DNA from: an uncultured Gemmatimonadales bacterium
GTDB taxonomy: Bacteria; Gemmatimonadota; Gemmatimonadetes; Longimicrobiales; RSA9
Direction: 5' to 3'
Assembly (NCBI GenBank): GCA_963798845.1
Contig: CAWCUS010000001.1
Coordinates: forward strand, 672,001 to 736,000
Length of the DNA: 64,000 bases
Shown here piece by piece: positions 48,061 through 64,000 of this stretch. The notes under the pieces are model-generated. The model saw only the letters and a program-made list of their open reading frames with translations, made no database searches and had not been told where the DNA came from. The position numbers and the translations under genes are program-made. Position 1 is the stretch's first letter; each line of letters begins with the position of its first letter.

Positions 48061-48141
48061 GTGGAACCTTTCCCGCCCCCAGTGTACTACTCCCCCGTTA
48101 TACAACGGCCGGTCAACCAGTCATATGCCGGGGGGGAAGAC

Positions 48142-48477: not shown

Positions 48478-48500
48478 GCGTCGGCTCGTCGACCGGAAGA

Positions 48501-48533
48501 AGAGGGGCGCCCGCAGGTCGCGGGCGCCCTTCT
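48501..48533 (+). terminator. Probable intrinsic terminator after trxA
   Basis: AGAGGGGCGCCCGC-AGGTC-GCGGGCGCCCTTCT, 14-bp stem with one G:U. Confidence 0.65.
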
Positions 48534-48558
48534 CATTGCGCGAGGACGGTGAGGCGGC

Positions 48559-48975: not shown

Positions 48976-49006
48976 ACACGCGCCGCGACAGCGGGTACTG
49001 CGACGA

Positions 49007-50103: not shown

Positions 50104-50109
50104 CGCCTC

Positions 50110-50604
50110 CTAGCGGACCACCGGCGGCGCGTAGGCCTCGCCCACCGGCAGCTTCCCCGTCGCGCCCAGGATCCAGCGGAAGCAGCGGTGCGCCACGTCG
50201 ACGGGCTCCAGGAACATCATCGGGCAGCCGCCGTCGAGGAGCGCGAGCCCCCGCTCACGGGCGACCGCGACGGCATCGTCGGCAACGCTCCCGGCGCCGA
50301 ACGAGCGGTGCAGCCAGACACGGGGGATACCCCGGTCGGCGCACGCGGCGACCACCTCGGCGGCGGCGGCCGGGTGCGTCGCGACGACGACACCCTCGAC
50401 CCCGTCCGGCAGGTCGTCGATGGATCGGTAGCAGCGCTCCCCCTCCACCTCGTCGGCGTTCGGGTTTACCGGGAAGACCTCGTAGCCCTCCTTCCTCAAG
50501 CGTCGCCAGATGATGGTCGCGGCGGTGTCGCCCGAGCGGGAGACTCCGGCCACGGCCAGTCTGCGGTGGGAGAGGAACTCCGCTGCGGCCTCCTTCAGCT
50601 TCAT
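50110..50604 (-). CDS. CoA-binding protein (YccU-like)
   Basis: LAVAGVSR, YEVFPVNP, CYRSIDDLP, VWLH, GGCPMM. Confidence 0.87.
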   Translation of the reverse strand: MKLKEAAAEFLSHRRLAVAGVSRSGDTAATIIWRRLRKEGYEVFPVNPNADEVEGERCYRSIDDLPDGVEGVVVATHPAAAAEVVAACADRGIPRVWLHRSFGAGSVADDAVAVARERGLALLDGGCPMMFLEPVDVAHRCFRWILGATGKLPVGEAYAPPVVR

Positions 50605-50778
50605 CACGGCTCCTTCGCTGACGCGGATCGGGCCGGGGCTTCGCCCGGATGGTGGGCGCCCGTCGGGGGACGCCGCAAGGACGGCGATTCCGCCCTGCCG
50701 CGTCGCCGGCCTTGATCGGCGCGTGCATCGGCACGACCTTCCGCCAGCGAGCCCCATCACGCCACACCTGGAGCCATC

Positions 50779-51489
50779 ATGCGGAGCCGCACACCCGTCC
50801 TCCTCATCACCGTGGGGCTGGGCCTCGCCGGCTGCCGTCCTGCCAGCGACGCCGAGGCCGCCGAGCCCGCGGTCACAAGCGCGGCCAAGGCGCCGGGCCC
50901 CGCCGCGAAGGGCGGCGCGCCGGCGCAGGCAGCGTCCACCGTGCAGGAGCCCGAAGCCCCGGGACACCGGGTCGGGCGGGCCGATGCGCCCATCGTCGTG
51001 GTGGAGTTCAGCGACTTCGGCTGCCCGTACTGCGCGCGCTTCGCACGCACGACCTTTCCGGAGCTGCGCGACGACGTGGTGAAGAGCGGCATGGTCCGTT
51101 GGCGCTACGTCCCCGTGACGTTCGGCTTCCCGGGCGGCCGGCTCATGGCCGCTGCGGCGGAGTGCGCCGCCGAGATCGGCGGAGAGCAGGCCTTCTGGCG
51201 CATGCACGACATGCTGTACCGGAACCAGCCCCTCTTCCGGGAGGACGACGGCCCCGCCCGCCTCCTGGCGAAGGTCGACTCTCTCGGCCTCGAGCGGCGT
51301 CGGATGGAAACGTGCCTCCAGTCCCCCACCGTGGCCGGCCGGCTCCAGGCCAACAACCTGGCCGCCCAGGAGTGGCTCGTTCGCGGCACCCCCACGTTCA
51401 TCATCAACGGCGTCCCCACCAGCGGCGCCATGCCGACCGCCTTCTTCCACAAGATGTTCAGCACGCTGCTCGATCCCGGCTCGCTCTGA
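50779..51489 (+). CDS. DsbA-family thioredoxin-fold lipoprotein
   Basis: Lipobox LAGC, EFSDFGCPYC, RGTPTFIING. Confidence 0.9.
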   Translation: MRSRTPVLLITVGLGLAGCRPASDAEAAEPAVTSAAKAPGPAAKGGAPAQAASTVQEPEAPGHRVGRADAPIVVVEFSDFGCPYCARFARTTFPELRDDVVKSGMVRWRYVPVTFGFPGGRLMAAAAECAAEIGGEQAFWRMHDMLYRNQPLFREDDGPARLLAKVDSLGLERRRMETCLQSPTVAGRLQANNLAAQEWLVRGTPTFIINGVPTSGAMPTAFFHKMFSTLLDPGSL

Positions 51490-51612
51490 TCGCGCGGAGG
51501 CTGGGAGGGCGCGGCGAACACCTTTCCCGCCCCGCGTGCCCGCCCTACCTTACCCGCGCCCCTTCCCGGCGCACCCTCTCCTGTCCCATGGACTGGCAAA
51601 AGGAGATGGCAG

Positions 51613-53397
51613 GTGCACACGCCCCCCTGGCTCGAGCACTACGACGAGGGTGTGCCCCGTTCGCTCACCCCGTACCCGGACCGCACGCTGCTGGACTACA
51701 TAAGGGAGGCCGCGGAGCGAGGGCCCGACCGGCCGGCCGTACTCTTCCGCGGCGCCGCTCTGAGCAACCGCCGGCTGGAGCGGGAGAGCGACGCCCTGGC
51801 CGCGGCGCTGGTGGCGGCCGGGCTCCGGAAGGGAGATCGGGTCGCGCTGGTGTTGCCGAACTGTCCACAGTTCCTCGTCGCCGAAATCGGCATCTGGAAA
51901 GCCGGCGGCGTCGTGGCGCCGCTCAACCCGATCTACACGGAGCATGAGCTGCGCGACGCCATGGCCCAGAGCCGCCCGCGCATGGCGGTGGTGCTGACGC
52001 GCTTCTACGGCCACGTGAAGGCGCTCCAGCCGGACAGCACGCTGGAGCGCGTCATCGCCACGAACATCAAGGAGTACCTGCCGCCACTGCTGCGCGTCCT
52101 GTACACGCTCCTGCGAGAAAGGAAGGAGGGGGACCGCATCCGGCTCCAGCCGGGCGACGCCTGGCTCGGCGACCTGATCCGCGAGCACGCCGCCGCACCG
52201 CCTCCCGCCCTGAACGTCGGCCCGGACGACCCCGCGCTCCTCCTCATGAGCGGCGGGACGACGGGAACGCCCAAAGCGGCGCTCGGGCGCCACCGCTCCC
52301 TCGTCATGAGCGGCATTCAGCTGCGCACCTGGCTCCACCCGATCCTGGGCGAGTGGGACGACCTCGTCATGCTCCCGCTCCCGCTCTTCCACGTGTACGG
52401 CAACGCGGGCGTGCAGAGCTTCGCGCTCATCGGCCACAACCCCCTGGTTCTGCCGCCGAACCCGCGTGACCTGGACGATCTCATCCACTCCGTCGACCGC
52501 CTCCGCCCCACCATCTTCGCGGGCGTCCCCGCCCTTTTCTCCGCCATGCTGGAGCACCCGAAAGTGAAGGCCCGGAAGGTGGACATGAGCTCCATCGCAG
52601 GCTGTTTCTCGGGCGCTTCGCCGCTCCTGGCCGAGACCAAGCGCCGCTTCGAGGAGCTGACGGGCGGCGTCATCGTCGAGGGGTACTCGCTCACGGAATC
52701 GATGATGGCGTGCTGCGTGAACCCGGTCCGGGGCGAGAAGAAGGTGGGCTCGGTCGGGATGCCGGTGACGGACGTGGAAGTCCGCGTCGTCGATTCCGAG
52801 GACGGGGACCGCACGCTCCCGCCCGGCGAGATCGGCGAGCTGCTCCTGAGGGCGCCGCAGCTCATGGACGGCTATTGGGAGAGCCCGGCCGAGACCGAAC
52901 TCACGCTCTGCTCCCACGGCGAAGGCGGCCCATGGCTTCACACCGGGGACCTCGCCACCCTTGACGACGACGGCTATGTGCGCATCGTCGACCGGAAGAA
53001 GGACCTGATCAAGGTCAGCGGGATGCAGGTCTGGCCGCGGGAGGTCGAGGAGGTCATTGCCACCCACTCCGCCGTCGCTGACGTGGGGTGCGCCGGCGTC
53101 CCCCACCCGCGCAAGGGCGAGGTCGTGAAGGCGTGGGTGGTGCTGCGCGCGGGCGCGTCGGCGACCGAGGACGAGATCCGCGACCACTGCCGCGACACCC
53201 TGGCCCCGTTCAAGGTTCCGAAGGCCGTGGAGTTCTGGGACGAGCTCCCGCGCAACATGATGGGCAAGGTGCTCCGCCGATCGCTGCGCCAGCGAGCGGC
53301 CCACGACGCCGGCGCCGAGCCGTCGGAGGAGTTTGCCACCGCCGCGGCCGTCGTCGCGGACAGCGTTTCACCCGATTCGGAAGACGTGACACCATGA
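51613..53397 (+). CDS. fadD: Long-chain fatty acid-CoA ligase
   Basis: SGGTTGTPK, LPLFHVYG, EGYSLTE, LHTGD, DRKKDLI, GKVLRR. Confidence 0.9.
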   Translation: MHTPPWLEHYDEGVPRSLTPYPDRTLLDYIREAAERGPDRPAVLFRGAALSNRRLERESDALAAALVAAGLRKGDRVALVLPNCPQFLVAEIGIWKAGGVVAPLNPIYTEHELRDAMAQSRPRMAVVLTRFYGHVKALQPDSTLERVIATNIKEYLPPLLRVLYTLLRERKEGDRIRLQPGDAWLGDLIREHAAAPPPALNVGPDDPALLLMSGGTTGTPKAALGRHRSLVMSGIQLRTWLHPILGEWDDLVMLPLPLFHVYGNAGVQSFALIGHNPLVLPPNPRDLDDLIHSVDRLRPTIFAGVPALFSAMLEHPKVKARKVDMSSIAGCFSGASPLLAETKRRFEELTGGVIVEGYSLTESMMACCVNPVRGEKKVGSVGMPVTDVEVRVVDSEDGDRTLPPGEIGELLLRAPQLMDGYWESPAETELTLCSHGEGGPWLHTGDLATLDDDGYVRIVDRKKDLIKVSGMQVWPREVEEVIATHSAVADVGCAGVPHPRKGEVVKAWVVLRAGASATEDEIRDHCRDTLAPFKVPKAVEFWDELPRNMMGKVLRRSLRQRAAHDAGAEPSEEFATAAAVVADSVSPDSEDVTP

Positions 53398-55013
53398 GCA
53401 TCGGACGGATCGCCGCACTGCTGACGTCGGCCGTGCTGGGCGCGACAGCGTGCGCCCCGCAGCACGAGGAACCGATCACCGCCGACGGCATCATGAGCGA
53501 TGTCCTGGTCCTCTCCGCCGACAGCATGGAGGGGCGCGCCCCCGGCTCGATCGGCGAACAGCGCGCCACGGACTATGTCGCCAGCCGCTTCCAGGCCATG
53601 GGCCTCCGGCCGGCCGGCGACGACTACATCCTCCCCGTGGAGCTGGTGGGGATGACCCGCGACGCGGAGCGCTCCACGCTCGAGCTCGCCGGCCCCGGCG
53701 GCGCGCTGCCGATCCGCGACGGCGAGAACTTCACGTTCTGGTCCACCGCCGAGCAGCCCGAGGTGGATGTCCGCGACGTCCCGGTGGTCTTCGTCGGCTA
53801 CGGCGTCGAGGCGCCGGAGCACGAATGGGACGACTTCAAGGGCGAGGACGTGCGCGGGAAGATGCTCCTCTTCCTCAACGACGACCCGCAGGTCGAGGAG
53901 GACGGCGACTCCCTCTTCGGCGGCCCCGCGCGCACGTACTACGGCCGCTGGACCTACAAGTTCGAGCAGGCGCAGAAGCACGGCGCCGTCGGTGCGATCG
54001 TGGTCCACACCACCAGGTCGGCCAGCTACGGCTTCAGCGTCATCGGCAACACCGGCGACCGCCAGGTCTGGCAGCGCAGCTACCGCGTGCCGGTGCTCGC
54101 CTGGATGGACTCCACCCTGTCCGAGCAGGTGGCCCACGCCATGGGCACCGACCTGGCCGGGCTCGTCGACCGGGCCAACCACCGCGACTTCCACCCGGTG
54201 GACACTGGCTTTCGCCTCGCCGCCCACGTCCTGACCGGTATCCAGCGGGTGCAGGCCCGCAACGTGGCCGCCGTCGTGCGCGGCACCGACCCCGACCTCG
54301 CCGACCAGTACGTCGTCTTCACGGCCCACCACGACCACCTGGGCATCGCGCCCGCCGGCGACGACTCCACCGCCGACCGCATCTACAACGGGGCCGCCGA
54401 CAACGCGCTCGGCGTCTCCGCCATGCTCGCCGCCGCGCGCGCCTTCGTCGACACGCCGGCGCGCCGCTCGGTCATGTTCGTCTCCGTGACGGCCGAGGAG
54501 GGGGGGTTGCTCGGGAGCGAGGCGTTCGTCGCCGGTCCGCCGGTCCCGCTCCGCCAGATCGTCGCCAACTTCAACGTGGATTCGCCCCAGATGTTCGGGC
54601 CAACGCAGGACGTGGCCGCCATCGGCATCGACCTGAGCTCCCTCGGTGACGCCTTCGCCAGCGTCGTGGACGGCCTGGGGCTCACCCCGGTCGGCGACCC
54701 GAACCCCGCGGCCGGGAGCTTCTATCGGTCGGACCAGGTCAGCTTCGCAAAGATGGGCGTCCCGGCGCTCTACCTGCAGGCCGGTCGCGAGTACATGGAC
54801 TCACTGGCGTTCGATCCGGAGGCGTACCACGCCGGACGCTACCACCAGGTCACCGACGAGGTCTCCGACGCGTGGAACCTGACCGGGACCGAGCGCGACA
54901 TGCGCATCCTCGTCGATGCCGCTCGCCACGTCGCCGACGCCGACCAGGCGCCGCGCTGGCACCCCGGCAGCGAGTTCGAGGCGGAGTGGGAGGCGCTCTA
55001 CGGGAGCCGCTGA
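53394..55013 (+). CDS. M28 family metallopeptidase lipoprotein with PA domain
   Basis: ATAC lipobox, EGRAPG, VFVGYGV, YYGRWTYKFE, AHHDHLG, GAADNALG, AEEGGLLGS, RSDQ, YHQVTD. Confidence 0.92.
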   Translation: MSIGRIAALLTSAVLGATACAPQHEEPITADGIMSDVLVLSADSMEGRAPGSIGEQRATDYVASRFQAMGLRPAGDDYILPVELVGMTRDAERSTLELAGPGGALPIRDGENFTFWSTAEQPEVDVRDVPVVFVGYGVEAPEHEWDDFKGEDVRGKMLLFLNDDPQVEEDGDSLFGGPARTYYGRWTYKFEQAQKHGAVGAIVVHTTRSASYGFSVIGNTGDRQVWQRSYRVPVLAWMDSTLSEQVAHAMGTDLAGLVDRANHRDFHPVDTGFRLAAHVLTGIQRVQARNVAAVVRGTDPDLADQYVVFTAHHDHLGIAPAGDDSTADRIYNGAADNALGVSAMLAAARAFVDTPARRSVMFVSVTAEEGGLLGSEAFVAGPPVPLRQIVANFNVDSPQMFGPTQDVAAIGIDLSSLGDAFASVVDGLGLTPVGDPNPAAGSFYRSDQVSFAKMGVPALYLQAGREYMDSLAFDPEAYHAGRYHQVTDEVSDAWNLTGTERDMRILVDAARHVADADQAPRWHPGSEFEAEWEALYGSR

Positions 55014-55078
55014 CCGGGAGCCGCTGGCCGGAAGCCGTTGACCGGGAGCCGCTGACCGGGAGCCGTAGACCGGAGCCG
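55001..55078 (+). repeat. 14-bp (2 x heptamer) tandem repeat, 5 copies plus partial, between convergent genes
   Basis: CGGGAGCCGCTGAC, CGGGAGCCGCTGGC, CGGAAGCCGTTGAC, CGGGAGCCGCTGAC, CGGGAGCCGTAGAC. Confidence 0.9.
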
Positions 55079-55093
55079 GTCGCCCGCTCCCCG

Positions 55094-55456
55094 TTATTCC
55101 TCCAGCAGCGTGTCGAGGGCGCGGGTGCGGGTGACCGCGTCCTCGATGTCGTCGAGCACGGCGAAAAGGCGGGCCATGGCCTCGTCGGTCTTGGCCGGGA
55201 GGTTGTCCAGCTCCCAGATCGCCTCCATCAGGGCGTGCCCGATCTCCTCGTGCATCGCCTGGAGTTTGCCGCACTCGCTGGAACGGGCGAGGGCGAGACG
55301 GCGTCCCGCAGGGGTGTCGGTGAGTCGGATCTTCAGCCCGTCCGTCGTGCAGCCCGGACAGCAGGTGCCGCACTCGGGGCACTGGAGCGTGCGGGCGTCG
55401 AGCTCGGCGTCGCAGACACGGCAGCGGGTCAGGGACGAGATCTTGGTTTTCGGCAT
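55094..55456 (-). CDS. Small Zn-ribbon plus helical-hairpin protein
   Basis: CRVC..CPEC..CPGC followed by amphipathic heptad helices; GGAGAA RBS. Confidence 0.6.
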   Translation of the reverse strand: MPKTKISSLTRCRVCDAELDARTLQCPECGTCCPGCTTDGLKIRLTDTPAGRRLALARSSECGKLQAMHEEIGHALMEAIWELDNLPAKTDEAMARLFAVLDDIEDAVTRTRALDTLLEE

Positions 55457-55649
55457 ATGGACTTCTCCGCCATCATCGACCGTTGGCTAGGCGGGGCTCC
55501 GTCCGTCCTTTCAGCATATGCGTCCGGACCGCCCGGTGCCAGAGCGGCGTCGCCGCTCAGCCGACCCGTCCGGCGAGCCCTGGTGTCGAGCGAACGCTCA
55601 CCGCACCTTCCAACCCAATGCGTACACCGATTTTCCGGCAGCCGGGCTC

Positions 55650-56537
55650 GTGAGCGCTGCGCCAGATCGCCGAACCGGCGTCCAGGTGGCCCTGCTCGGG
55701 CTCGGCGTCAACGCCGTCCTGGTACTGGTCAAGGTGACCGCCGGCGTCCTGGGGAACTCCTACGCCCTGATCGCCGACGGGGTGGAGTCGAGCCTCGACG
55801 TCTTCTCTTCCATCATCGTCTGGCGAGGCCTCACCGTGGCCGGCCGCGCCGCCGACGAGCGCTATCATTTCGGGTACGCCAAGGCCGAGTCGGTCGCCGG
55901 CGCCACCGTCGCCGCCATGCTCGTGGTCGCCGCGATCGGCATCTCGATCGAGGCTGTGCGCGAGATCCTCACCCCTCACCACTCCCCGGCCCCGTTCACG
56001 CTGGCCGTCCTCGCCGTCGTCGTCCTCGGCAAGGGACTCCTCGCCCGCACCGTCTTCCGCGTCAGCGACGGGATCGGCAGCGTCGCCCTGCAGGCCGACG
56101 CATGGCATCACCGCTCCGATGCCCTCACCTCCGCCGCTGCAGCGGTCGGCATCGCCGTCGCCATCGTGGGCGGCGAAGGCTTCGCCCCCGCGGACGACGT
56201 CGCCGCCCTCGTCGCATCCGGCATCATCGTATACAACGGAATCCGCCTCCTTCGTCCCGCGCTCGGAGACCTCATGGACCGCGCGCCCGATCCGGACGTC
56301 ATCGACCGGGTCCGCGCCAGCGCCGCCACCGTTTCCGGCGCGCTCGCCGTCGAGAAGGTGTTGGCGCGGCGGGCCGGTCTCGGCTACTTCGTCGCCCTCC
56401 ACGTCGAAGCCGATCCTGCCATGTCCCTCGAGGACGCCCACGAGCTCGGACATGCCGTCAAGGAAGCCGTCATCGAGGAGGTACCCCACGTCCTCGACGT
56501 CATCGTCCACATGGAGCCGCATCACTCCGCCCATTGA
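55650..56537 (+). CDS. Cation diffusion facilitator family transporter (FieF-like)
   Basis: SYALIADGVES..D, YHFGYAKAE, ADAWHHRSD, SLEDAH, VIVHMEP. Confidence 0.92.
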   Translation: MSAAPDRRTGVQVALLGLGVNAVLVLVKVTAGVLGNSYALIADGVESSLDVFSSIIVWRGLTVAGRAADERYHFGYAKAESVAGATVAAMLVVAAIGISIEAVREILTPHHSPAPFTLAVLAVVVLGKGLLARTVFRVSDGIGSVALQADAWHHRSDALTSAAAAVGIAVAIVGGEGFAPADDVAALVASGIIVYNGIRLLRPALGDLMDRAPDPDVIDRVRASAATVSGALAVEKVLARRAGLGYFVALHVEADPAMSLEDAHELGHAVKEAVIEEVPHVLDVIVHMEPHHSAH

Positions 56538-56544
56538 CCCGGCG

Positions 56545-56640
56545 CCCCCACCCCCCGCCCCCCTCCCCCTCCCACCCTCGCACATACCGCCCTCCCGCCC
56601 TCCGACCCTCCGACCTCCCGCCCGCCGGCCGTTCCGCCCC
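56545..56640 (+). repeat. C-rich low-complexity tract (G-quadruplex potential on the minus strand)
   Basis: CCCCCACCCCCCGCCCCCCTCCCCCTCCCACCC followed by CCCTCCGA-like short repeats. Confidence 0.6.
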
Positions 56641-56688
56641 GCAGCCCGTGGCGGCGAAACGCACCGATGAGGCGGTGCGGGCGCGGCC

Positions 56689-56704
56689 CGGAACACCCCT
56701 TGCT
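56689..56704 (+). promoter_or_regulatory. Sigma54 (-24/-12) promoter candidate
   Basis: CGGAACACCCCTTGCT, GG-N10-GC, about 40 bp upstream of ATG 56743 with GAGGAGG RBS. Confidence 0.5.
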
Positions 56705-56742
56705 ACAGATGTTTGGCGAACTCCAACGCGAGGAGGATCGCA

Positions 56743-57420
56743 ATGGCTGATATGGAGCTCGAACGGAGGCCGCGGCGGGGCCGCGGCGGAAACTGGGTCT
56801 GGTGGATCGTGGGCGCGCTGGTGATCGTCCTGCTCATCTGGTGGTGGGTCGGCGACTGGGGCGGGGACAATGACAACGGGTACGCGGCGAACGACGAGAC
56901 CGCGGACCAGGTGGCGCCCGCGCCGGTGACGTCACCGGCGCCGGTGACGACGACGTCGGCGATCCCGATTGCGGATATCGTGTCCAACCCGCAGACATAC
57001 GTGGGGCAGAGCTACAGCGGCGATGTACTGGTGACGGAGTCGCCCACGCCGCGCGGGTTCTGGGCGCAGGACGACGCGAGCGGCCAGCGCATCTTCGTGG
57101 TGGTGACGGAGGAGCCGAGCGGGCAGCCCCTGTCAGTGACGACGGACCAGCGCTACACGCTGCGGGATGCGACGGTGAGCGACGCTTCCACACTGGGCAG
57201 CATGGGCGGTGAGCCGCTGGACCAGCAGACGCAGGACATCGCGCAGCAGCAGCCGGTGGTGCTGACGGTTTCGGCGATGAACGTGCAGCCGTCCACCGGA
57301 ACGGCGGGCACCCAGAACGGCACCGGGATGAACGCCCCGCCGAACGGCGGCGGCACCCCGGGTGGCGTGAACCAGCCCGCCGACGTGGGTGGCGGAAACA
57401 ACGACGAGGGCGGCAGGTAG
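56743..57420 (+). CDS. Membrane-anchored hypothetical protein (Trp-rich N-terminal TM)
   Basis: NWVWWIVGALVIVLLIWWW, Pro/Thr linker, OB-fold-like segment (RGFWA...IFVVV). Confidence 0.7.
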   Translation: MADMELERRPRRGRGGNWVWWIVGALVIVLLIWWWVGDWGGDNDNGYAANDETADQVAPAPVTSPAPVTTTSAIPIADIVSNPQTYVGQSYSGDVLVTESPTPRGFWAQDDASGQRIFVVVTEEPSGQPLSVTTDQRYTLRDATVSDASTLGSMGGEPLDQQTQDIAQQQPVVLTVSAMNVQPSTGTAGTQNGTGMNAPPNGGGTPGGVNQPADVGGGNNDEGGR

Positions 57421-57445
57421 CCAGCCGTTCCCTCACGAGGGCACG

Positions 57446-57484
57446 ACGCCCGCCGCGGTTCCGCCGTGGCGGGCGTTCGTGTGT
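57446..57484 (+). terminator. Probable intrinsic terminator
   Basis: ACGCCCGCCGCGG-TTCCG-CCGTGGCGGGCGT followed by TCGTGTGT. Confidence 0.6.
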
Positions 57485-57609
57485 CCGGGCGGGGGAGCGT
57501 GGTCACCGCGGGCGGCGGCCGCGGGAACGGCGGCGTCGCGCCGGGCGCTCCCATGTTTGCCCGGACCTTGCATATTGAGGCGATCGCAGCTCCCACGACA
57601 GCGTGAAAG

Positions 57610-58500
57610 GTGACCGTGCATCGATCGATCGAAGCCCTCCTGGTGGAGGCGCGTGAGCAGGAACGCTCGCTCCCGGACGTGGTGCTCCGTGCAGAGGCGG
57701 CGGAGAGCGGGCGAGGCGAGGACGAGATCCGCGGCCGGGTTCGGAAGACGCTGCGGGTGATGCGCGAGGCGATCGACGAGGGCCTGAAGGGGGACGTCCG
57801 CTCTCCGTCCGGCCTCACGGGAGGGCGCGCCGCTCGCCTGCACGCCGACGGCCCCCGCCTCCTGGGCGACCGTGTCACGACCATGCTCTCCCGCGCCATC
57901 GCGACGCTCGAGGTGAATGCGGCCATGGGGCTGATCGTGGCGGCGCCCACCGCCGGCGCGGCGGGGGTGCTCCCGGCGATCCTGACGTCGGCGGGCGAGA
58001 TCCTCGATGCGGACGAGGAGCGCCTCGTCGACGCGATGTTGGTCGCGGGCGGGGTGGGGGGCGTCATCGCCCATCGCGCCTCCCTGGCGGGCGCGGCGGG
58101 CGGCTGCCAGGCGGAAACCGGCTCGGCCGCCGCCATGGGCGCGGCTGCCGTCACGTGGCTGGCGGGGGGGAGCGACGACCAGGTGGCCACCTCCGTCGCG
58201 CTGGCGCTGCAGGGGATGCTCGGCCTCATCTGCGACCCCATCGGAGGGCTGGTCGAGATCCCGTGCATCTACCGCAACGCGACCGCAGCCATGCAGGCGC
58301 TGGCCGCGGCCGAGATGGCGCTCGCCGGCCTCGACTTCCCCGTCCCCGCCGACGAGGTCATCGACGTCATGGGCGAGGTGGGCCGGAAGATGCCCATCGC
58401 GTATCGCGAGACGGCCCAGGGCGGCCTGGCCGCCACGCCTTCCGCCCGCCGCCTGGTCCAGATCCAGCCGTCCCGACGCCCTGCGGGGATCAGCGCCTAG
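57610..58500 (+). CDS. sdaAA: L-serine dehydratase, Fe-S dependent, alpha subunit
   Basis: EVNAAMG.IVAAPTAGAAG, GGCQAE, LGLICDPIGGLVEIPC..RN, RETAQGGLA. Confidence 0.95.
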   Translation: MTVHRSIEALLVEAREQERSLPDVVLRAEAAESGRGEDEIRGRVRKTLRVMREAIDEGLKGDVRSPSGLTGGRAARLHADGPRLLGDRVTTMLSRAIATLEVNAAMGLIVAAPTAGAAGVLPAILTSAGEILDADEERLVDAMLVAGGVGGVIAHRASLAGAAGGCQAETGSAAAMGAAAVTWLAGGSDDQVATSVALALQGMLGLICDPIGGLVEIPCIYRNATAAMQALAAAEMALAGLDFPVPADEVIDVMGEVGRKMPIAYRETAQGGLAATPSARRLVQIQPSRRPAGISA

Positions 58501-58509
58501 GAGGCGATC

Positions 58510-59175
58510 ATGGTCGGACTCTTCGACATCCTCGGCCCCGTGATGGTCGGGCCGTCCTCGTCCCACACCGCCGGCGCGTGCCGCCTGGGGCTGCTCGCCC
58601 GCGCCATTTTCGGCGGCACTCCCGAGCGGGCCACCATCCGCCTCCACGGCTCCTTCGCCGCCACGGGCGAGGGGCACGGCACGCAGCGCGCCATCGTCGG
58701 CGGACTGCTCGGCGTTCCGCCCGACGACCTCCGCCTCCGCTCCGCGTTCGAGGATGCCGACGCCGCCGGCCTCGACTACCGCTTCGAGACCGTCGACCTC
58801 GGCGACGATGCCCACCCCAACACCGCCGTCCTGGAGATCGAGGGCGGGGACGAGAGGCTCCACGTCCGCGGCGCGTCCGTGGGCGGCGGCCGCGTCCGGA
58901 TCACCGAGATCGACGAGTTCCCCGTCGACCTCGGCGGCGACTACCACACCCTCGTCCTGGCAGCCGAGGACCGCCCCGGCACCATTGCTGCCATCAGCAG
59001 CCTCTTCGCGGAGGAGGGCGTCAATCTGGCCACCATGCGCGTGGACCGCACCGGACGGCACCAGGAGGCGCTGATGACCATCGAGGTCGACGCGGCCATC
59101 AGCGACGCGGTCCTCGCGCGGATCCGGGCGTTCGACTGGGTTCTCTGGGCGCGCCGAATCGAGCAGATCGCCTGA
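58510..59175 (+). CDS. sdaAB: L-serine dehydratase beta subunit (with ACT domain)
   Basis: FDILGPVMVGPSSSHTAGA, GSFAATGEGHGT, HPNT, SVGGG, DRPGTI..NLATM. Confidence 0.95.
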   Translation: MVGLFDILGPVMVGPSSSHTAGACRLGLLARAIFGGTPERATIRLHGSFAATGEGHGTQRAIVGGLLGVPPDDLRLRSAFEDADAAGLDYRFETVDLGDDAHPNTAVLEIEGGDERLHVRGASVGGGRVRITEIDEFPVDLGGDYHTLVLAAEDRPGTIAAISSLFAEEGVNLATMRVDRTGRHQEALMTIEVDAAISDAVLARIRAFDWVLWARRIEQIA

Positions 59176-59325
59176 CGGCAGCCGGCGCCACGATATCCTA
59201 CCATCCCGGGGCGATCCGCCCTATCGTGGAATCGCTGCACGCATCATCCCCCCGCCGCCGCAGGCGGCCGGCTCCACCAGGACCGCGCGGCGGCCAGCCC
59301 GCAACAGCCAGCCGGAGAGACATCA

Positions 59326-59802
59326 ATGGGAGGGACGGTCATCACCATCGAGTTCGATGGCAGGGAGGTATCCGTGACGCCATCCTCGACCTGCCCGGCG
59401 AAGAACGCCCCGGACGCGGCGTGCGCGGTCCACGGGTCGTTCGTGGACTGGGAGGAGAAGCCGAGGAACACGTTCCACTGGGCCGTGATCGTACTGGGGG
59501 ATGCGCCGTTCAAAAAGCAGGTCTTTTCCAACACCCGCGGCTGCGCCACGGGCGGCTACGTGGACACCGGCGAGGACGGAGAAGAGGTGGAGTACGTGGT
59601 GGTGGCGTGGAACGACTACGGCGCCCACAAGGTTCTCGACCCGGTGCTGGTGATCAAGGACCAGCCGCACCCGCCGACCACCTCCGCCTTCTACTCGATC
59701 CTGGACGGGATCCAGAGCCAGGCTCAGACGCTGTCGGAGGACCTCCAGCAGCTGGAAGCGATCGCTCGTCAGATCATTCCCGAGGAGGAGACGGCGTCGT
59801 AG
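59326..59802 (+). CDS. Hypothetical protein
   Basis: GGAG RBS, typical codon use, beta-rich core (EYVVV..LDPVLVI) and a helical tail; overlaps the convergent gene by 29 bp. Confidence 0.6.
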   Translation: MGGTVITIEFDGREVSVTPSSTCPAKNAPDAACAVHGSFVDWEEKPRNTFHWAVIVLGDAPFKKQVFSNTRGCATGGYVDTGEDGEEVEYVVVAWNDYGAHKVLDPVLVIKDQPHPPTTSAFYSILDGIQSQAQTLSEDLQQLEAIARQIIPEEETAS

Positions 59803-61711
59803 AGGCGGTCTCGGTTCCGAGGCCTACCAGGCGGAGGAACGCCGGGTCCGTGTGCAGCCCGTCGAACACCCAGTCCCGGGCCACCACGGCGGTGTCGGGA
59901 AGCTGGACCGCCAGCGCCATCCGGAGCAACCGGACTGCGCTGGCGCGGTCGTCCATCAGCAGTGCGACCTGCGCCTCGTCGTAGGCCAGCCCCGGCTGCG
60001 GCTCCGGGCCGCGTGCGCGGATAACGATCGCCCGGGCGCTGTCCGCCAGCCCGGCCCTCGCCGCCACCTTGGCCACCTGCATGATCGCCCACGCGCGGTA
60101 CGGCTGGCGCTGCGACGACGGCACCGTCGCCACCAGCGAGTCGACCAGCGCCCAGGCGCGGTCCACGTCGGGAGCCACCTGGGGGAAGGTCCCGAGCACG
60201 GTGAGGTCCAGCTGGATGAACCCGGAGTTGTCCGGGAACCGTGACCGGCCCTCGGCGACCTGCGTGATGATGGCGTCGTCAGGGCCGAACTGCAGCCCGC
60301 TGTAAGCGGCGGCGAAAAGCGCGTTCTCCTCCAGGTCGAGGAACTCGTCGGCGGCGATTGCGTGGTCGGCCGCGAGCTTCGCTTCCTCGAAGCGGCCCTG
60401 GTCCGTGAGCAGCTCGCTGAGGGCCTGCCACGCCCGGGCACTGCGGTCGTCGCGCTCCACGGCCAGCCGAAGGTCGGCCTCCGCCCTGGAACGGAGCGAG
60501 GCAAGCTCCGACCCCGAGGCACCCGTCGCCTGCGCCATCCGGACGAGCCCCCGCAGCTCCAGCGCCGCGGCGGTGTCCACAGATACGGCCAGCGCTCGCT
60601 CGGCGTGCGCCAGCGCCTGTGTGCACCAGGTCGGCGAGGGTGCCGTGGGGCTGCCCACGATGGAAGCCAGGTCGAGGGCGACGTGGCCACGCAGGAGCGC
60701 GGGCTGGTCCCAGGTGGGGTCCAGGTGCCCGGCCTTCGCCAGGAGCGTGTCGGCGCGCAGCAGCAGCGGCAGCCCGGCCTCCGCGTCCTCGCTGCGCAGG
60801 GCCCAGAAGTCCGTGTACAGGCGCTGGGCACGGCCCCAGAGCGCCCACGCCTCGTCGCTGGTGTTGCCCGCGCGCCGACGGCGGAGATCGAGCTCCCTCC
60901 CGAGGACCTTCCGGAGTGCGCGCGAGACCCCGCCCACGAGGCTGTCCTGGAGCGCGATCCAGGCGCCCACCGGCGCGTCCACGTAATCGCTGTGCAGGTG
61001 GCTCAGGTCGGAGCCGCGGATGAGCTGGAACGTGACCCGGATCTTCCCGTCCGGCCCCGGCGCAACGCTCCCTTCCACGATGCTTCCCGCCCGGAGCTCC
61101 GCCACGACCCTGTCCATGTCCACACGCTCGCCACGGAACCGCTTCACCCCGTTGCGCGAGATCACGTCCAGCGACCGGACCTGCCCGAGCTCGTGGATCA
61201 GCGCTTCGGTCAGCGCGTCGGCCAGGTACGCATATTCGCCGTTCGGCGTGTAGTCGTCGAAGTAGAGCACGGCCACGCGCGCGGGGTCGAGCGACACCGG
61301 GGCGATCACCGCCGCCGCATTCCCGGCGGAGGCCGCTTCCGACGTGCGCGGCCCCCAGACCTGCCAGCCGGTCACGCCCAGCGCCACGCTCAGCAGCACC
61401 ACGAGCAGCACGGCCAGCACGCGCCCACCGACCCCCAGCAGCTCTGAAAACCCCCGCCCCCGGTCCGCTCTAACCCCCTCGGTGGTGACCTGGAGCGCCC
61501 ACGCGAGGACCACGACGATCGGGAATCCCACGGCCGAGACCACCACCAGCAACGGGAGCAGCCATGACGGGAACTCCAGCGCCGACACCAGGATCGTGTC
61601 CACGAACTGGAGCACCGCGTACGCCCCGACCAGGTACAGGATGACCATCCTGGAAACGCGGCGGCGGCGCAGCTCGTCGAGAAATGACCGAAGACCCGAT
61701 CCAATGGGCAT
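59774..61711 (-). CDS. Membrane protein with 3 N-terminal TM helices, TolB-like domain and TPR repeats
   Basis: FLDELRRRRV..YLV..GFP...AW, VAVLYF..LADALTEALI..LDVISR, IVEGSV, TPR helices. Confidence 0.85.
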   Translation of the reverse strand: MPIGSGLRSFLDELRRRRVSRMVILYLVGAYAVLQFVDTILVSALEFPSWLLPLLVVVSAVGFPIVVVLAWALQVTTEGVRADRGRGFSELLGVGGRVLAVLLVVLLSVALGVTGWQVWGPRTSEAASAGNAAAVIAPVSLDPARVAVLYFDDYTPNGEYAYLADALTEALIHELGQVRSLDVISRNGVKRFRGERVDMDRVVAELRAGSIVEGSVAPGPDGKIRVTFQLIRGSDLSHLHSDYVDAPVGAWIALQDSLVGGVSRALRKVLGRELDLRRRRAGNTSDEAWALWGRAQRLYTDFWALRSEDAEAGLPLLLRADTLLAKAGHLDPTWDQPALLRGHVALDLASIVGSPTAPSPTWCTQALAHAERALAVSVDTAAALELRGLVRMAQATGASGSELASLRSRAEADLRLAVERDDRSARAWQALSELLTDQGRFEEAKLAADHAIAADEFLDLEENALFAAAYSGLQFGPDDAIITQVAEGRSRFPDNSGFIQLDLTVLGTFPQVAPDVDRAWALVDSLVATVPSSQRQPYRAWAIMQVAKVAARAGLADSARAIVIRARGPEPQPGLAYDEAQVALLMDDRASAVRLLRMALAVQLPDTAVVARDWVFDGLHTDPAFLRLVGLGTETASTTPSPPRE

Positions 61712-61797
61712 GGGGAGTCGTCTTCGGGTAGGGGGAAGCCATGGCGCCCGTATGCACTATGTCGGGGGAGGGGGTGCGGGGACAAGGGGGGTCTTGG

Positions 61798-61990
61798 CTC
61801 GGGCTTCGCCCTCGCAGAGGGGCTCGGCCCCTGCGGGGCCTCGCAGAGGGGCTCAGCCCCTGCGGGGGCTTCGCAGAGGGGCTCGGGCTTCGCCCTCGCA
61901 GAGGGGCTCGGCCCCTGCGGGGCCTCGCAGAGGGGCTCGGGCTTCGCCCTCGCAGAGGGGCTCAGCCCCTGCGGGGGCTTCGCAGAGGGG
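61798..61990 (-). repeat. Tandem array B: 7 units of 25-30 nt, same family as arrays A and C, on the minus strand
   Basis: + strand CTC-[GGGCTTCGCCC | GGCCCCTGCGGGGCC | AGCCCCTGCGGGGGCT]-TCGCAGAGGGG; unit order 25,29,30,25,29,25,30 nt. Confidence 0.96.
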
Positions 61991-62372
61991 CGGGGCCGGG
62001 CAGGTGGGGGGGGGAGCGGGTGAAGGCGTTGATCAGGCGGCGCAGGTCCAGCTTCACGTCCTTCAGGAGGCGGAGCGCGCAGAGGAGATCCTCGTTGGCG
62101 ACGGCGCCGACCGCCGTGAGGCTGCGGAGGGCGTGCTCGCATTCCACGGCCGAGCGGTGAGCATAACGATAGAGGCGGACCTTGTCGCCGGTGCTCATCT
62201 CGCCCAGGCCCTCGCCCACGTTGGTCACGACCGACGCCGCCGAGCGTTGCAGGTGATCGTTCGCCGGCTGCCTTGCCACCGCCGCCCGCCCTCCGAGCGA
62301 CTCCGCCATTCGGAGGACCTTTCGCGCCAGCCTGGCCACCCGCGGCTCCCGCGACCGCCCGCTTCTCACCAT
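61962..62372 (-). CDS. Four helix bundle protein (23S rRNA IVP / bAvd-like family)
   Basis: DHLQRSAASVVTNVGEG...DKVRLYRYAHRSAVEC...LRRLI matches the family pattern DQL.RAA.S...NIAEG...F..IA.GS..E; GGAG RBS. Confidence 0.82.
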   Translation of the reverse strand: MVRSGRSREPRVARLARKVLRMAESLGGRAAVARQPANDHLQRSAASVVTNVGEGLGEMSTGDKVRLYRYAHRSAVECEHALRSLTAVGAVANEDLLCALRLLKDVKLDLRRLINAFTRSPPHLPGPAPLRSPRRG

Positions 62373-62419
62373 GCTCCCACTCTACCCCTCCCCCCCGGCC
62401 ACAGCCATGGCTCGATGCG

Positions 62420-62642
62420 CCTCTGCGAGGCGAAGCCCGAACCCCTCTGCGAGGCGAAGCCCGAGCCCCTCTGCGAGGGCGAAGCCCGAGCCCCTCTGCG
62501 AGGCGAAGCCCGAGCCCCTCTGCGAGGGCAAAGCCCGAGCCCCTCTGCGAGGGCAAAGCCCGAGCCCCTCTGCGAGGGCGAAGCCCGAGCCCCTCTGCGA
62601 GGGCGTAGCCCGAGCCCCTCTGCGAGGGCGAAGCCCGAGCCC
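62420..62642 (+). repeat. Tandem array C: 9 units of about 24-25 nt
   Basis: CCCCTCTGCGA-(G)GGC-[GAA/AAA/GTA]-GCCC-GAG repeated; inverted relative to array B. Confidence 0.96.
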
Positions 62643-62774
62643 ACCCACCCCCCACCCCTTTCCCCGCCCCGCCCCCGCGCCCATCATCGAGGCGCCCCGC
62701 TCGCCATTGACCCGAGATGAACAGTTGCGCCCGCCGGCGGTCCGGGGGGGCGCCGCAGGAGCGACCGAAGGCCG

Positions 62775-64000
62775 ATGCCCGACCAGGATGAACGATACGG
62801 GGCGGTCCGCCCGCCGGAGGAGCTGAATCCTCGGCGGGAGGCGGCGCTCGACTTTCGCCAGCGAGCGCTCGGCGACATGACGCCGGCCGACTATGACGCC
62901 ATCGGCTTCCTCGCCGGGCTCGAGGTCCACCAGCAGCTTCTGACCACTTCGAAGCTCTTCTGCCGATGCCCTGCAGGCCGGCGTTTCGAGCACGCCGATG
63001 CCGAGGTGCTGCGCCACATGCGGCCCACGCTCAGCGAGCTGGGCGAGTACGACGGCACGGCGCTGATGGAGTTCAAGACGCGCAAGGAGATCGTCTACCT
63101 GCTGGAGCGGCGCACCGTCTGCACGTACGAGATGGACGACACGCCGCCGTTCCCGGTGGACGAGGAAGCGGTCCGCATCGCGGTCGAGCTGGCCATGCTC
63201 TTCGACCTGAAGCTGGTCTCGGAGCTCCACGTCATGCGCAAGCAGTATCTGGACGGCTCGATCCCCACGGGTTTCCAGCGCACGGCCATGGTCGGGCTCG
63301 GCGGCAGCGTCCCGTTCCGGGTCCCCGAGCTCGGCGTGGACCGGCCGCTCACCATCCGGCAGCTCTCGCTGGAGGAGGACTCCTGCCGCGAGGTCAGCGA
63401 CGTGGGCCACCGCATCGTGTTCCGCGCCGACCGCCTGGGCGTCCCCCTCACCGAGGTGGTCACGGAGCCCGAGCTGCGCACGCCCTGGGAGCTTCAGGCC
63501 GCAGGCCGCCTCATCGCAAGCGCCGCCCGTGCCACCGGCCACGTCCGCCGCGGCCCCGGCGCCGCCCGTCAGGACGTGAACGTCTCGGTCGCCGGCGGCA
63601 GGCGGGTGGAGATCAAGGGCGTGCCGCGCCACCGCGGGCTCCCGCTCCTCGTCCACATCGAGGCATTCCGGCAGCTCGCCCTGCTGCGCGTGCAGGCCGA
63701 GCTGGAGCGACGCGGCGTCACCACCGCCCTGCTCCCGCTGCCCGGCGACGATGCGCCGGCGTGGGAATCGTCGACGCTGGTGGCGGACGCGTCCGGCACC
63801 CTCGCCCGCACCGGCCACACCCCGCTGCGCAGTGCGCTGGACCGGGGCGAGACCGCCGTGGCCGTGCGGCTCCCGGGCTTCGCCGGACTGCTCGACCAGC
63901 CGACGCAGACGGGCATCCCCTTCGGTCGTGAGCTGGCGGAGCGGGTGCAGGTCATCGCGTGCCCGGTCCACCGTCCGTTCATGGCTTGGAACGGCAGTGC
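62775..64000 (+). CDS. gatE: Glu-tRNA(Gln) amidotransferase subunit GatE (archaeal type), truncated by the window end
   Basis: Manual translation: DYDAIGFLAGLEVHQQL..KLFCRCP, RPTLSELGEYD, MRKQYLDGSIPTGFQRT, LEEDSCR, DRLGVPLTE, RRGPGAARQDVNVS, VEIKGV; no stop seen before 64000. Confidence 0.88.
   Translation, partial: MPDQDERYGAVRPPEELNPRREAALDFRQRALGDMTPADYDAIGFLAGLEVHQQLLTTSKLFCRCPAGRRFEHADAEVLRHMRPTLSELGEYDGTALMEFKTRKEIVYLLERRTVCTYEMDDTPPFPVDEEAVRIAVELAMLFDLKLVSELHVMRKQYLDGSIPTGFQRTAMVGLGGSVPFRVPELGVDRPLTIRQLSLEEDSCREVSDVGHRIVFRADRLGVPLTEVVTEPELRTPWELQAAGRLIASAARATGHVRRGPGAARQDVNVSVAGGRRVEIKGVPRHRGLPLLVHIEAFRQLALLRVQAELERRGVTTALLPLPGDDAPAWESSTLVADASGTLARTGHTPLRSALDRGETAVAVRLPGFAGLLDQPTQTGIPFGRELAERVQVIACPVHRPFMAWNGS

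Follow-up and report, generated by a model that had tools for sequence, protein, structure and literature searches.

Arrays of a constant linker and an exchangeable hairpin between bacterial genes: a candidate minisatellite family under structural constraint

In the usual description, repeats between bacterial genes are either fixed palindromes (REPs) or simple arrays of short units. The stretch of 64,000 nucleotides analysed here, called the window, carries repeats that combine the two designs in a modular grammar of which only the linker and the fold are kept. Such a locus raises the question of what is maintained in these repeats, and in which nucleic acid. A sequence-only reading of the window had proposed that selection acts on a strand-specific single-stranded DNA structure next to a sequence-specific recognition motif, as in REP/HUH substrates. 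We compared the source genome (G000), that of a soil-type bacterium, with a sister species (G001) and with a member of a second genus (G005).

Three arrays and a gene cassette in the window

The window contains 25 matches to the core CCCCTCTGCGA with at most one mismatch, where 3.4 were expected and 100 shuffles gave a maximum of 10. Nearly all of them (23 of 25) are grouped in three arrays (47877-48060, 61796-61991 and 62418-62642). The 23 units, three arrays and near-invariant core described from the sequence alone were therefore confirmed, and all six hairpins listed at that time were found as written. The arrays and the features around them are as follows.

47877 to 48060, plus strand: array A, 7 head-to-tail units of 25-26 nt, with hairpins GGGC-GAA-GCCC and GGCC-GAAT-GGCC.
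61756 to 61793, plus strand: G-rich tract bordering array B on its outer side (C-rich when read on the strand of the array); left edge of an inserted block.
61794 to 61991, minus strand: array B, 7 units of 25-30 nt.
61962 to 62372, minus strand: ORF for a 136 aa four-helix-bundle protein of the 23S-rRNA-intervening-sequence family (PF05635 / TIGR02436).
62418 to 62642, plus strand: array C, 9 units of 24-25 nt, 8 with exact cores and 1 with one mismatch.
62643 to 62700, plus strand: C-rich tract after array C, conserved in G001; right edge of the inserted block (by-eye comparison).

The first base of array A directly follows the stop codon of the ORF at 45189-47876, and the orthologous site in G001 has no units, only 71 bp of unrelated sequence. 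The 136 aa ORF, which matches PF05635 (E 5.4e-10, with 39.9 bits where the cut-off is 33.8) and TIGR02436 (E 6.6e-10), sits between the two inverted arrays B and C. No close relative of its protein was found in genome_contigs. Array B is the downstream arm of this cassette, and the reading frame of the gene extends about 30 nt into it; its hairpins are GGGC-GAA-GCCC, GGCCCC-GCA-GGGGCC and AGCCCC-CGCA-GGGGCT. Array C is the upstream (antisense) arm, and gatB begins 135 nt beyond it. Its hairpins are GGGC-GAA/AAA/GTA-GCCC and the one-base-shorter GGC-GAA-GCCC, and in two to three of its units, GGCGAAGCCC, the 5′ arm lacks one base. The earlier statement that the segment between cores is always a stem-loop holds for nearly all units and was slightly too strong for these. 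The two arms of the cassette are not mirror copies of each other, their matching being confined to the linkers.

Array B, the PF05635 gene and array C form a block that is absent as a whole at the same site in G001, where about 120 bp of unrelated sequence lies between the same conserved flanks. Short, low-depth contigs from three DNA read runs contain pieces of the PF05635 gene and of both arms, and none of these contigs spans an array. When window positions 47500-63000 and 15 related loci were compared with Rfam, no match reached a gathering score and only sub-threshold plant miRNA precursors were returned.

A genome-wide family with one grammar and two linkers

The source genome as a whole carries 214 exact cores in 37 clusters, and a regular-expression parse yields about 30 intergenic arrays with 276 units of 21-30 nt, the median array having 9 units. 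Each unit consists of a pyrimidine linker (CCCTCT between hairpins) and one GC-clamped hairpin; it starts with CCCCTCTGCG and ends with GAG, and 222 of the 276 units have exactly CCCCTCT as their linker. Read from the outside inward, the hairpin begins with a G-C/C-G clamp. Next comes a tandem G·A/A·G step or, in its place, two further Watson-Crick pairs, and finally a stem of 2-9 bp that is closed by a C-G pair and capped by a loop that is mostly GNA. Among 246 non-terminal units there are 66 distinct hairpin bodies with 13 different perfect stems.

The second genus uses the same grammar with another linker, CCTGTTGC. Its arrays are heterogeneous (90 distinct bodies in 106 units), and its 82 distinct hairpins include 48 different perfect stems, across which the linker, the C-G closing pair and loop positions G1 and A3 are all retained. 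The linker is thus constant within a genome and different between genera, and the hairpin sequence is free provided that the fold is retained. The same GA-clamped GGCC-GNA-GGCC module occurs in at least 122 unrelated metagenome loci within other repeat designs. The exact double core itself found no match in 40 relatives, nor in genome_contigs or metagenome_contigs, from both of which the source genome is possibly excluded. A loose pattern of three CTGCG motifs in G001 showed no excess over a backwards control.

The core can also form an overlapping hairpin, CCTC-TGC-GAGG, which had been pointed out from the sequence. It exists in the window, but genome-wide at least 4 of its pairs are possible in only 152 of 246 units, and it cannot form in ACGAAGT and GCGC-type units or in the G005 family. 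We therefore rejected it as a conserved feature and regard it as incidental.

The arrays are intergenic, and most lie flush against stop codons. At 20 of 25 loci a gene 3′ end predicted by our own crude gene caller is no more than 43 nt away, and at C4:95059 the array occupies the entire gap between two convergent stop codons. Where two arrays form an inverted pair, the polarity of the pair is one and the same at 18 of 18 loci, a rule that any mechanism has to explain. Other aspects of orientation are less regular. Arrays between co-directional genes, read by eye, are in about 9 cases sense and in 4 antisense, and set against GC skew the orientations divide 12:6, with a further 2 unclear, a split that is not significant. 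Orientation that is free of both transcription and replication is not what a strictly strand-specific role predicts.

Array presence and copy number vary between the sister species. Six of eight orthologous sites in G001 are empty of arrays, and three of these six hold a single GC-rich hairpin. The site upstream of dnaE has 1 proto-unit in G001 and 11 units in the source genome, and the site at C1:6441 has 4 diverged units and 10 units, respectively. Head-to-tail units whose number varies between close relatives place the arrays among minisatellites (VNTRs).

Constraint on the fold and the competing explanations

Covariation of the arms and a GNA bias in a larger set of copies had been set beforehand as the test of the structural proposal, and both were found (242-276 units in the source genome, 98-106 units in G005). 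With the arms anchored at their ends, 357 of 488 cells in the source genome are Watson-Crick, 90 are G·A and 1 is G·T. Sliding the arms gave 103-175 Watson-Crick cells, and permutation gave a mean of 334 (sd 4.3), with 0 of 1000 permutations reaching 357. The corresponding values in G005 are 497 of 603 cells Watson-Crick, 66 G·A and 8 G·T, against 150-169 for slid arms and a permutation mean of 392 (sd 8.2; 0 of 1000 reaching 497). Pairing far above both controls in both genomes upholds a structural constraint beyond a by-product of slippage. The near-absence of G·T could equally reflect use of the units in both orientations rather than a role at the DNA level.

Loops in the source genome are GNA (140), GNNA (25) or GAAB (17) in 182 of 242 units, with 12 TNC loops, and loops of GNRA and UNCG type are rare. 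The 82 distinct G005 hairpins have 41 GNA and 2 TNC loops, and 52 of the 82 fall in the GNA or GNNA class. Of the 62 G005 triloops, 46 begin with G and 49 end with A, and the middle base is A in 23, C in 24 and G in 15. A C-G pair closes the loop in 56 of 62 distinct bodies in the source genome and in 70 of 82 in G005. GNA loops thus greatly outnumber TNC loops in both genomes, which makes the loops strand-asymmetric.

These preferences agree with the rules reported for DNA mini-hairpins, which of 64 possible triloops form with GNA only and melt at 70-76 °C, whereas r(GCGAAAGC) is given a Tm of 39 °C (PMC13037366). Because the repertoire of loops and pairs matches those rules and not RNA tetraloops, DNA is the more likely site of the constraint. 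Nearest-neighbour models, which have no mini-hairpin term, predict about one-fifth of the units (ACGAAGT and GCGAAGC types) to be barely stable in either chemistry. The proposal of a strand-specific single-stranded DNA structure is partly supported, by loops that are asymmetric and of DNA type, and array orientation is tied to neither transcription nor replication.

With moderate confidence, we interpret the arrays as a lineage-specific, REP/BIME-like family of hairpin minisatellites under single-strand structural constraint. The constraint would act on a single strand, more probably of DNA than of RNA. Slipped-strand or unequal exchange between identical linkers may grow and shrink the arrays, and stable hairpins would favour such exchange. 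Homogenisation of this type is evident within arrays, and the earlier phrase 'rather than simple slippage' is better put as 'in addition to' it. The same unit types occur at several distant loci (body GCGAACGAAGTGAG in 5 arrays and GCGAGGCCGCAGGCCGAG in 8), so local slippage alone cannot be their source. We saw no solitary unit in the source genome, only 9 isolated exact cores without a hairpin, and the arrival of arrays at new loci is therefore not accounted for, which counts against our interpretation. The arrays appear to have replaced single GC-rich hairpins such as those found behind the same genes in relatives, and for that reason they may serve as stacked 3′-end or intergenic hairpins. 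By analogy with REPs of E. coli, their contribution could be to termination, transcript-end protection or insulation; REP325 is reported to be a partly Rho-dependent terminator and mRNA stabiliser (bioRxiv 10.64898/2026.03.23.713779).

An unlikely alternative is that the arrays are the cis partner of PF05635 genes, the protein acting on the hairpin arrays and the repeat-armed gene being a cassette; gene-less arrays and inverted pairs would then be spread or decayed arms, or the arrays would be where such genes land. Each of the 3 PF05635 genes in the source genome does sit between inverted tandem arrays: the one in the window between arrays of the present family, the second between arrays of another hairpin family that itself has 4 gene-less arrays, and the third between hexamer runs. 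Two divergent homologues in G005 (C89 and C56) likewise lie between arms of GNA mini-hairpin units, inverted short-unit arrays accompany a PF05635 homologue at 9 of 12 loci in relatives, the array-gene-array block is missing as one unit at the G001 site, and the 18 inverted pairs all share the polarity of the gene-bearing pairs. However, only 2 of 30 arrays in the source genome flank a PF05635 gene, and G001 has family units at 3 loci yet no match to the window protein at E ≤ 1e-5. The closest homologues of that protein (35-44% identity) have hexamer or non-repeat arms, and hairpin-unit arms belong to less similar G005 genes (31-35% identity), so arm type and protein similarity do not go together here. 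No linker chain adjoins the three PF05635 genes that score best in G005.

A bolder version, which we regard as improbable, joins arrays and PF05635 genes into one undescribed single-stranded-DNA system. The genome-specific linker would be read by the protein, the exceptionally stable C(GNA)G mini-hairpins would be structural spacers that hold the strand in folded form, and the 18/18 polarity would reflect outward building of arms from a centre able to hold a gene. If true, this would provide the first functional handle on PF05635, a family unexplained since its discovery in rRNA intervening sequences. The metagenome loci with the GA-clamped module hint that such a principle may be widespread.

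The arrays could also be selfish or neutral minisatellites, in which stable hairpins and identical linkers drive their own slippage expansion with no gain to the cell and arm complementarity is maintained by template switching within the palindrome (quasipalindrome correction). Local homogenisation with higher-order ABAB periods fits this explanation, as do the unequal copy numbers at the same site in sister species and the perfect stems of all 17 of the 17 most abundant body types, with chimeric or broken units being rare. Symmetric two-arm insertions between stems (GGCC to GGCCGC or GGCCCC) are easily explained by a copying mechanism, and the near-absence of G·T intermediates fits template switching. 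Template switching inside palindromes, instead of selection, could indeed be the origin of perfect Watson-Crick arms and symmetric arm insertions. We nevertheless give this explanation a low probability: the heterogeneous G005 arrays, with linker, closing pair and G1/A3 retained, look like long-term constraint and not like recent expansion, and neither the strict 18/18 polarity nor the placement flush against stop codons is predicted by it.

A purely RNA-level element is very doubtful. C-rich single-stranded linkers spaced by hairpins could form a Rho-loading site, or inverted arms could, as they do in rRNA intervening sequences, pair into a long stem that is cut by RNase III. The 3′ UTR positions, the median of 9 units per array and the partial Rho dependence reported for REP325 (bioRxiv 10.64898/2026.03.23.713779) suit such a role. 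In the predicted folds of all 5 inverted pairs, linkers pair with linkers over long range and the hairpins are extruded, at minimum free energies of -339 to -620 kcal/mol compared with -185 to -358 kcal/mol for local pairs only. Against this, antisense orientation is seen in four arrays between co-directional genes, C is not particularly abundant in the G005 linker CCTGTTGC, 20 of 30 arrays in the source genome have no partner arm, and the loops are GNA/GYCA rather than GNRA/UNCG, with G·U avoided.

Least probable of all is that an HUH (RAYT / IS200-type) single-strand transposase uses the units as its substrates and recognises the fixed core beside the hairpin: hairpin, fixed flank and DNA-type loops would suit such an enzyme, and the genome search proposed earlier did recover three to four RAYT-like genes (best family NF047646, whole domain covered, 50-73 bits), but all score below the NF047646 cut-off of 80 bits, no array adjoins any of them, and each is flanked by its own inverted repeats, of GGAAACGTGGTCCG or GACGCCGTACCACTCGCC type, which are exact only at these genes and at one gene-less pair. 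A search of 25 related genomes found RAYT-like genes in 7, among them the three that carry units of this kind (G000, G001 and G005), a co-occurrence that is not significant given that 6 of 15 genomes of the family have such genes. The units moreover run head to tail, are never solitary and have no GTAG/CGTC tag, CGTC being seen only within the GTCA loop of one variant. The REP/HUH analogy of the sequence-only reading is thus supported neither by the candidate enzymes nor by the organisation of the repeats.

Relation to known systems

The arrays resemble the REP/BIME elements of Enterobacteria and Pseudomonas, which come with RAYT transposases and are described as short GC-rich extragenic palindromes in hundreds of copies clustered in intergenic regions, frequently at gene 3′ ends or between convergent genes, with species-specific sequence and a likely role as 3′-end hairpins (PMC2817692, PMC3733652). 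With 276 units in 30 intergenic arrays, the present family likewise comprises more than 100 short GC-rich extragenic palindromes. In REPs one end of the palindrome is reported to bear a conserved tag, GTAG or CGTC (PMC3733652), and BIMEs are reported to be clusters of REPs in alternating orientation (PMC2817692), whereas here a fixed linker takes the place of the tag, the hairpin sequence is freely exchangeable, and orientation changes at most once per locus. The RAYT-like genes differ from a REPtron in that the repeats beside them are not the dispersed array unit.

The cassette recalls 23S rRNA intervening sequences that contain a PF05635 (S23p / four-helix-bundle) ORF, the gene here lying between inverted tandem-repeat arms. 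The arm units are 21-30 nt long and each folds on itself, the site is between protein genes rather than in rRNA, and the same units form 28 further gene-less arrays. Among the arrays of this family, only 61794-61991 and 62418-62642 enclose a PF05635 gene, in a block that one sister species has and the other lacks. Through this cassette the four-helix-bundle 'intervening-sequence' genes, still little understood, are linked to a candidate nucleic-acid partner that is defined and can be tested.

The DNA mini-hairpins d(GCGNAGC) and d(GCGNNAGC) share with the units the C-G closing pair, the GNA/GNNA loop and two G-C pairs below it (PMC13037366), and CCGAAGG, GCGAAGC and GCGCAGC are present letter for letter in the units. 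The mini-hairpins described in that source are single and lie at single-strand replication signals in phage and plasmid origins; examples are the origin of phage G4 and the RSF1010 signal ssiA, with its CCGAAGG (PMC13037366). Here there are hundreds, arrayed in a chromosome. Should DNA folding be confirmed, the family would be rare chromosomal evidence that DNA mini-hairpins are important in vivo. The 48 stems of G005 and the 13 of the source genome already provide, across two genera, an unusually clean natural covariation set for a tiny hairpin.

Arrays of simple-sequence repeats of 6-9 nt, such as GGGAATC in Xanthomonas, are reported to share the intergenic location, the enrichment within 50 bp of stop codons, the variable copy number and the occurrence as a G-rich or C-rich strand (PMC4692102). 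The units described here are three times longer than those repeats, and each carries a self-folding hairpin whose arms co-vary.

Architecture of the hairpin arrays

Three tandem arrays built on the core CCCCTCTGCGA are present in the window.

47877-48060, plus strand: array A, 7 units in tandem
61794-61991, minus strand: array B, 7 units in tandem, cores from 61796
62418-62642, plus strand: array C, 9 units in tandem, the first with one mismatch in its core

At one mismatch or fewer, the window holds 25 matches to this core against 3.4 expected, and 23 of the 25 lie inside the arrays. Every hairpin listed in the sequence-only reading was found there. Its statement that each unit retains a stem-loop is correct for nearly all units, although two or three in the window are short of one base in the 5′ arm. 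In the whole assembly (G000; 4.26 Mb, 6 contigs, G+C 70.6%), of which the window is C1:672001-736000, 214 exact copies of the core fall into 37 clusters. Parsing on a pyrimidine run followed by GCG, by which some array-edge rows are mis-parsed, yields 276 units in 30 arrays (6.8 kb in total, median 9 units per array). Of the 276 units, 222 have a linker that reads exactly CCCCTCT. Hairpin bodies of 66 kinds occur among the 246 non-terminal units, and their 13 different perfect stems range from GC/GC to CGCGGCCGC/GCGGCCGCG. None of the nine isolated exact cores in G000 is followed by a hairpin, and the family therefore occurs in this genome as arrays only.

Units were examined by end-anchored pairing, wherein the base k positions past a linker is compared with the base k positions ahead of the next linker and no hairpin search is required. 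The 3′ portion of what had been described as an invariant core is part of the hairpin, and the unpaired part of the unit is CCCTCT. Most units (202 of 246) consist of GCGA, a stem-loop-stem and GAGC, such that a clamp of G-C and C-G pairs leads through a tandem G·A/A·G step into the variable stem; the remainder, with GCG and CGC at the ends, are paired throughout. At the third and fourth steps, units both of G000 and of G005, a genome from another genus of the same family, have either the tandem G·A or C-G/G-C pairs, which supports the clamp. The overlapping alternative hairpin CCTC-TGC-GAGG, also proposed from the sequence, is not conserved, as four or more pairs are possible in only 152 of the 246 units in G000.

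Covariation, loop bias and the nature of the fold

Covariation and a preference for GNA loops, whose absence from a larger set of copies had been named beforehand as refuting the structural proposal, are both present in G000 and in G005. Watson-Crick pairs fill 357 of 488 end-anchored cells in G000 (90 are G·A and 1 is G·T), and controls with the partner slid by −2, −1 and +1 give 175, 127 and 103. Because its arrays are heterogeneous, G005 provides a stronger test of covariation. There the pattern CCTGTTGC-N(9-20)-CCTGTTGC has 65 matches versus 0 for the backwards control, and parsing gives 106 units with 90 distinct bodies at 23 loci; 497 of 603 cells are Watson-Crick (66 G·A, 8 G·T), and slid controls give 150-169. 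When the 3′ halves were redealt inside length classes, the mean was 334 (sd 4.3) for G000 and 392 (sd 8.2) for G005, and the observed value was reached in 0 of 1000 permutations in each genome, counts that are not probabilities because units in one genome share descent. More convincing is the stem diversity of G005, with 48 different perfect stems among 82 distinct bodies of normal length.

The loops of 242 units in G000 comprise 140 GNA, 25 GNNA, 17 GAAB, 12 TNC and 48 others, and those of the 82 distinct bodies in G005 comprise 41 GNA, 11 GNNA, 2 TNC and 28 others. The 62 triloops of G005 favour G at the first position (46) and A at the third (49), with the second divided among A (23), C (24) and G (15). 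A C-G pair closes the loop in 56 of 62 distinct bodies in G000 and in 70 of 82 in G005. The structural inference concerning the hairpin holds, and the observation is stronger than first stated.

By analogy with known mini-hairpins, a constraint acting at the DNA level is plausible. According to a 2026 review of mini-hairpin DNA (PMC13037366), GNA is the only one of all 64 GCNNNGC triloops to give a mini-hairpin (Tm 70-76°C), the DNA form accepts GC-GC and CC-GG stems, stability is somewhat lower with GNNA and GAAB tetraloops, and r(GCGAAAGC) has a Tm of only 39°C. The loop repertoire of the arrays includes GAA, GCA, GGA, GTCA, GCCA and GAAT; GCGAAGC, GCGCAGC and CCGAAGG are literal matches in units, GNRA loops (GCAA, GCGA) are scarce, and UNCG loops are absent from the array hairpins. 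Taken with the near absence of G·T, this repertoire is more consistent with DNA than with RNA. Several points speak against the DNA reading: nearest-neighbour models assign 2-bp units hardly any stability as DNA or as RNA, pairing restricted to Watson-Crick types could also be due to use in both orientations, and the bias of array orientation relative to transcription (about 9:4, by eye) or to GC skew (12:6) is not significant.

Inverted pairs and the PF05635 cassette

A 136-aa minus-strand ORF with a PF05635/TIGR02436 four-helix-bundle domain lies between the arrays at 61794-61991 and 62418-62642. Arrays B and C are arms of a four-helix-bundle gene cassette and belong to a modular hairpin-repeat family. 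At the same intergenic site in the sister species G001 (GatB identity 87%), both flanks are kept and about 120 bp of unrelated sequence replaces array, gene and array. A C-rich tract upstream of gatB, CCCCTTTCCCCGCCCCGCCCCCGC (window 62643-62700), is conserved at G001 L018:1370-1430, and similar tracts on the linker strand follow most arrays.

Both of the two further PF05635 genes in G000 are bracketed by inverted repeats, one by inverted arrays of another hairpin-repeat family with 44-46-nt units and the other by GTCCCC-type hexamer runs. Units of this second family contain two hairpins, of the CCCCGCGCAGCGGGG and GGCGCC-NTCA-GGCGCC types, with TTCGAA at the end.

G000 C6:17351-17572: gene-less array of the second family
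G000 C6:26014-26189: gene-less array of the second family
G000 C6:490718-490901: gene-less array of the second family
G000 C6:1072581-1072810: gene-less array of the second family
Both sides of G000 C6:1185630-1186000: inverted arms of the PF05635 gene

Tandem Repeats Finder (TRF) placed inverted short-unit arrays beside the PF05635 gene at 9 of 12 relatives' loci, and one more carries a plain 19-nt inverted repeat; the unpublished genomes G017 and G020 were counted in tallies only, and no claim is based on either. In G005, the arms of divergent homologues on C89 and C56 are GNA mini-hairpin units, and no linker chain accompanies its three best-scoring PF05635 genes. The closest homologues of the window protein (35-44% identity) have other arm types. 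Arm type does not follow PF05635 protein similarity in the genomes compared.

Inverted array pairs obey a strict polarity rule. Arrays of opposite orientation are paired at five G000 loci, always in the order minus then plus, as are 13 of 13 G005 loci with both orientations (18 of 18 combined). When the five G000 pairs were folded as single strands, the predicted structures joined the linkers of one arm to those of the other and left every hairpin as a local extrusion, with minimum free energies of −339 to −620 kcal/mol versus −185 to −358 for local pairs only. Such pairing between arms would explain the uniform linker and the unmatched hairpins, an explanation that is inapplicable to the 20 partnerless arrays.

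Genomic history and relation to known repeats

With gene ends taken from a GC3-based caller (88% coverage), a gene 3′ end lies within 43 nt of the array at 20 of 25 G000 loci. The first base of array A directly follows a stop codon, and the array at G000 C4:95059 occupies the entire gap between two convergent stops. Six of the eight orthologous G001 sites compared are empty, three of these having a single GC-rich hairpin, judged by eye, at the array position. Upstream of dnaE, the 11 units of G000 correspond to a lone proto-unit in G001 that shares their ACGAAGT hairpin, and the ten units at C1:6441 to four diverged ones in G001 that all still form hairpins. The hairpin family therefore predates the split of the two species, and it both grows in place and arrives at new sites. 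Identical unit types at up to eight distant loci point to some copying between loci.

Other repeats were also observed, of which the 21-nt repeats are probably coding because their period is divisible by three.

Window 55001-55078: 14-nt tandem array CGGGAGCCGCTGAC, 5.6 copies, from an apparent gene end, with no inverted partner within 2 kb
Window 24302-24444 and 31059-31167: 21-nt tandem repeats, 6.8 and 5.2 copies, 93-95% matches
G000 C5:380470-380545: GCCCTCA heptamer run
G000 C1:625269-625394 and C5:384580-384705: two 18-nt arrays
G000 C2:566089-566266: 38-nt array

The REP/HUH mechanism suggested earlier is unsupported, since the RAYT-like genes have other flanking repeats and no array nearby. 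PF01797 matches four places in G000, three being full genes (321-375 aa) that match the REP-associated tyrosine transposase model best, at 50-73 bits (cut-off 80). They have a C-terminal extension of about 170 aa with a weak HTH match.

G000 C1:549712-550716: RAYT-like HUH gene flanked by its own inverted repeats
G000 C5:284171-285298: RAYT-like HUH gene flanked by its own inverted repeats
G000 C5:398618-399583: RAYT-like HUH gene flanked by its own inverted repeats

The flanks are inverted GGAAACGTGGTCCG-type copies at two genes and GACGCCGTACCACTCGCC at one, and exact copies are found in G000 at these genes and one gene-less pair, nowhere else. That pair (C2:265415/265555, 150 bp) looks like a miniature derivative. 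No hairpin arrays are located near the RAYT-like genes of G000, and a link between the two has no positional support in this genome. RAYT-like genes occur in 7 of the 25 related genomes searched, including G000, G001 and G005, a distribution with which such a link would be compatible.

The module TGCGA-GGCC-GNA-GGCC-GAGCC is present at 122 or more metagenome loci, counted as raw pattern matches; the repeat designs that contain it vary widely, and some of them lie in AT-rich DNA. Of 79 modules in the commonest design, 29 have an upstream partner arm with complementary flanks, and in 0 of the 29 is the inner segment the reverse complement of its partner's; here too, the pairing frame is fixed and the mini-hairpin free. 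A palindromic element, CTTCGAGGCTCG-x-CTCGCACCTCAG ... CTGAGGTGCGAG-y-CGAGCCTCGAAG, is widespread, occurring at L102, L125 and some 50 further metagenome loci; its two arms differ in their inner mini-hairpins, one carrying GCC-GNA-GGC and the second a 5-nt C-TNC-G.

The literature searched (mini-hairpin motifs in genomic repeats, Gemmatimonadota repeats and PF05635/TIGR02436) yielded no account of arrays like these or of a modular hairpin-repeat family with a polarity rule, and the main text of the RepRanger REP survey does not mention Gemmatimonadota. Comparison with known systems drew on published accounts: for the definitions of REPs, PMC2817692 and PMC3733652; for the function of REP325, bioRxiv 10.64898/2026.03.23.713779; and for the heptamer arrays of Xanthomonas, PMC4692102.
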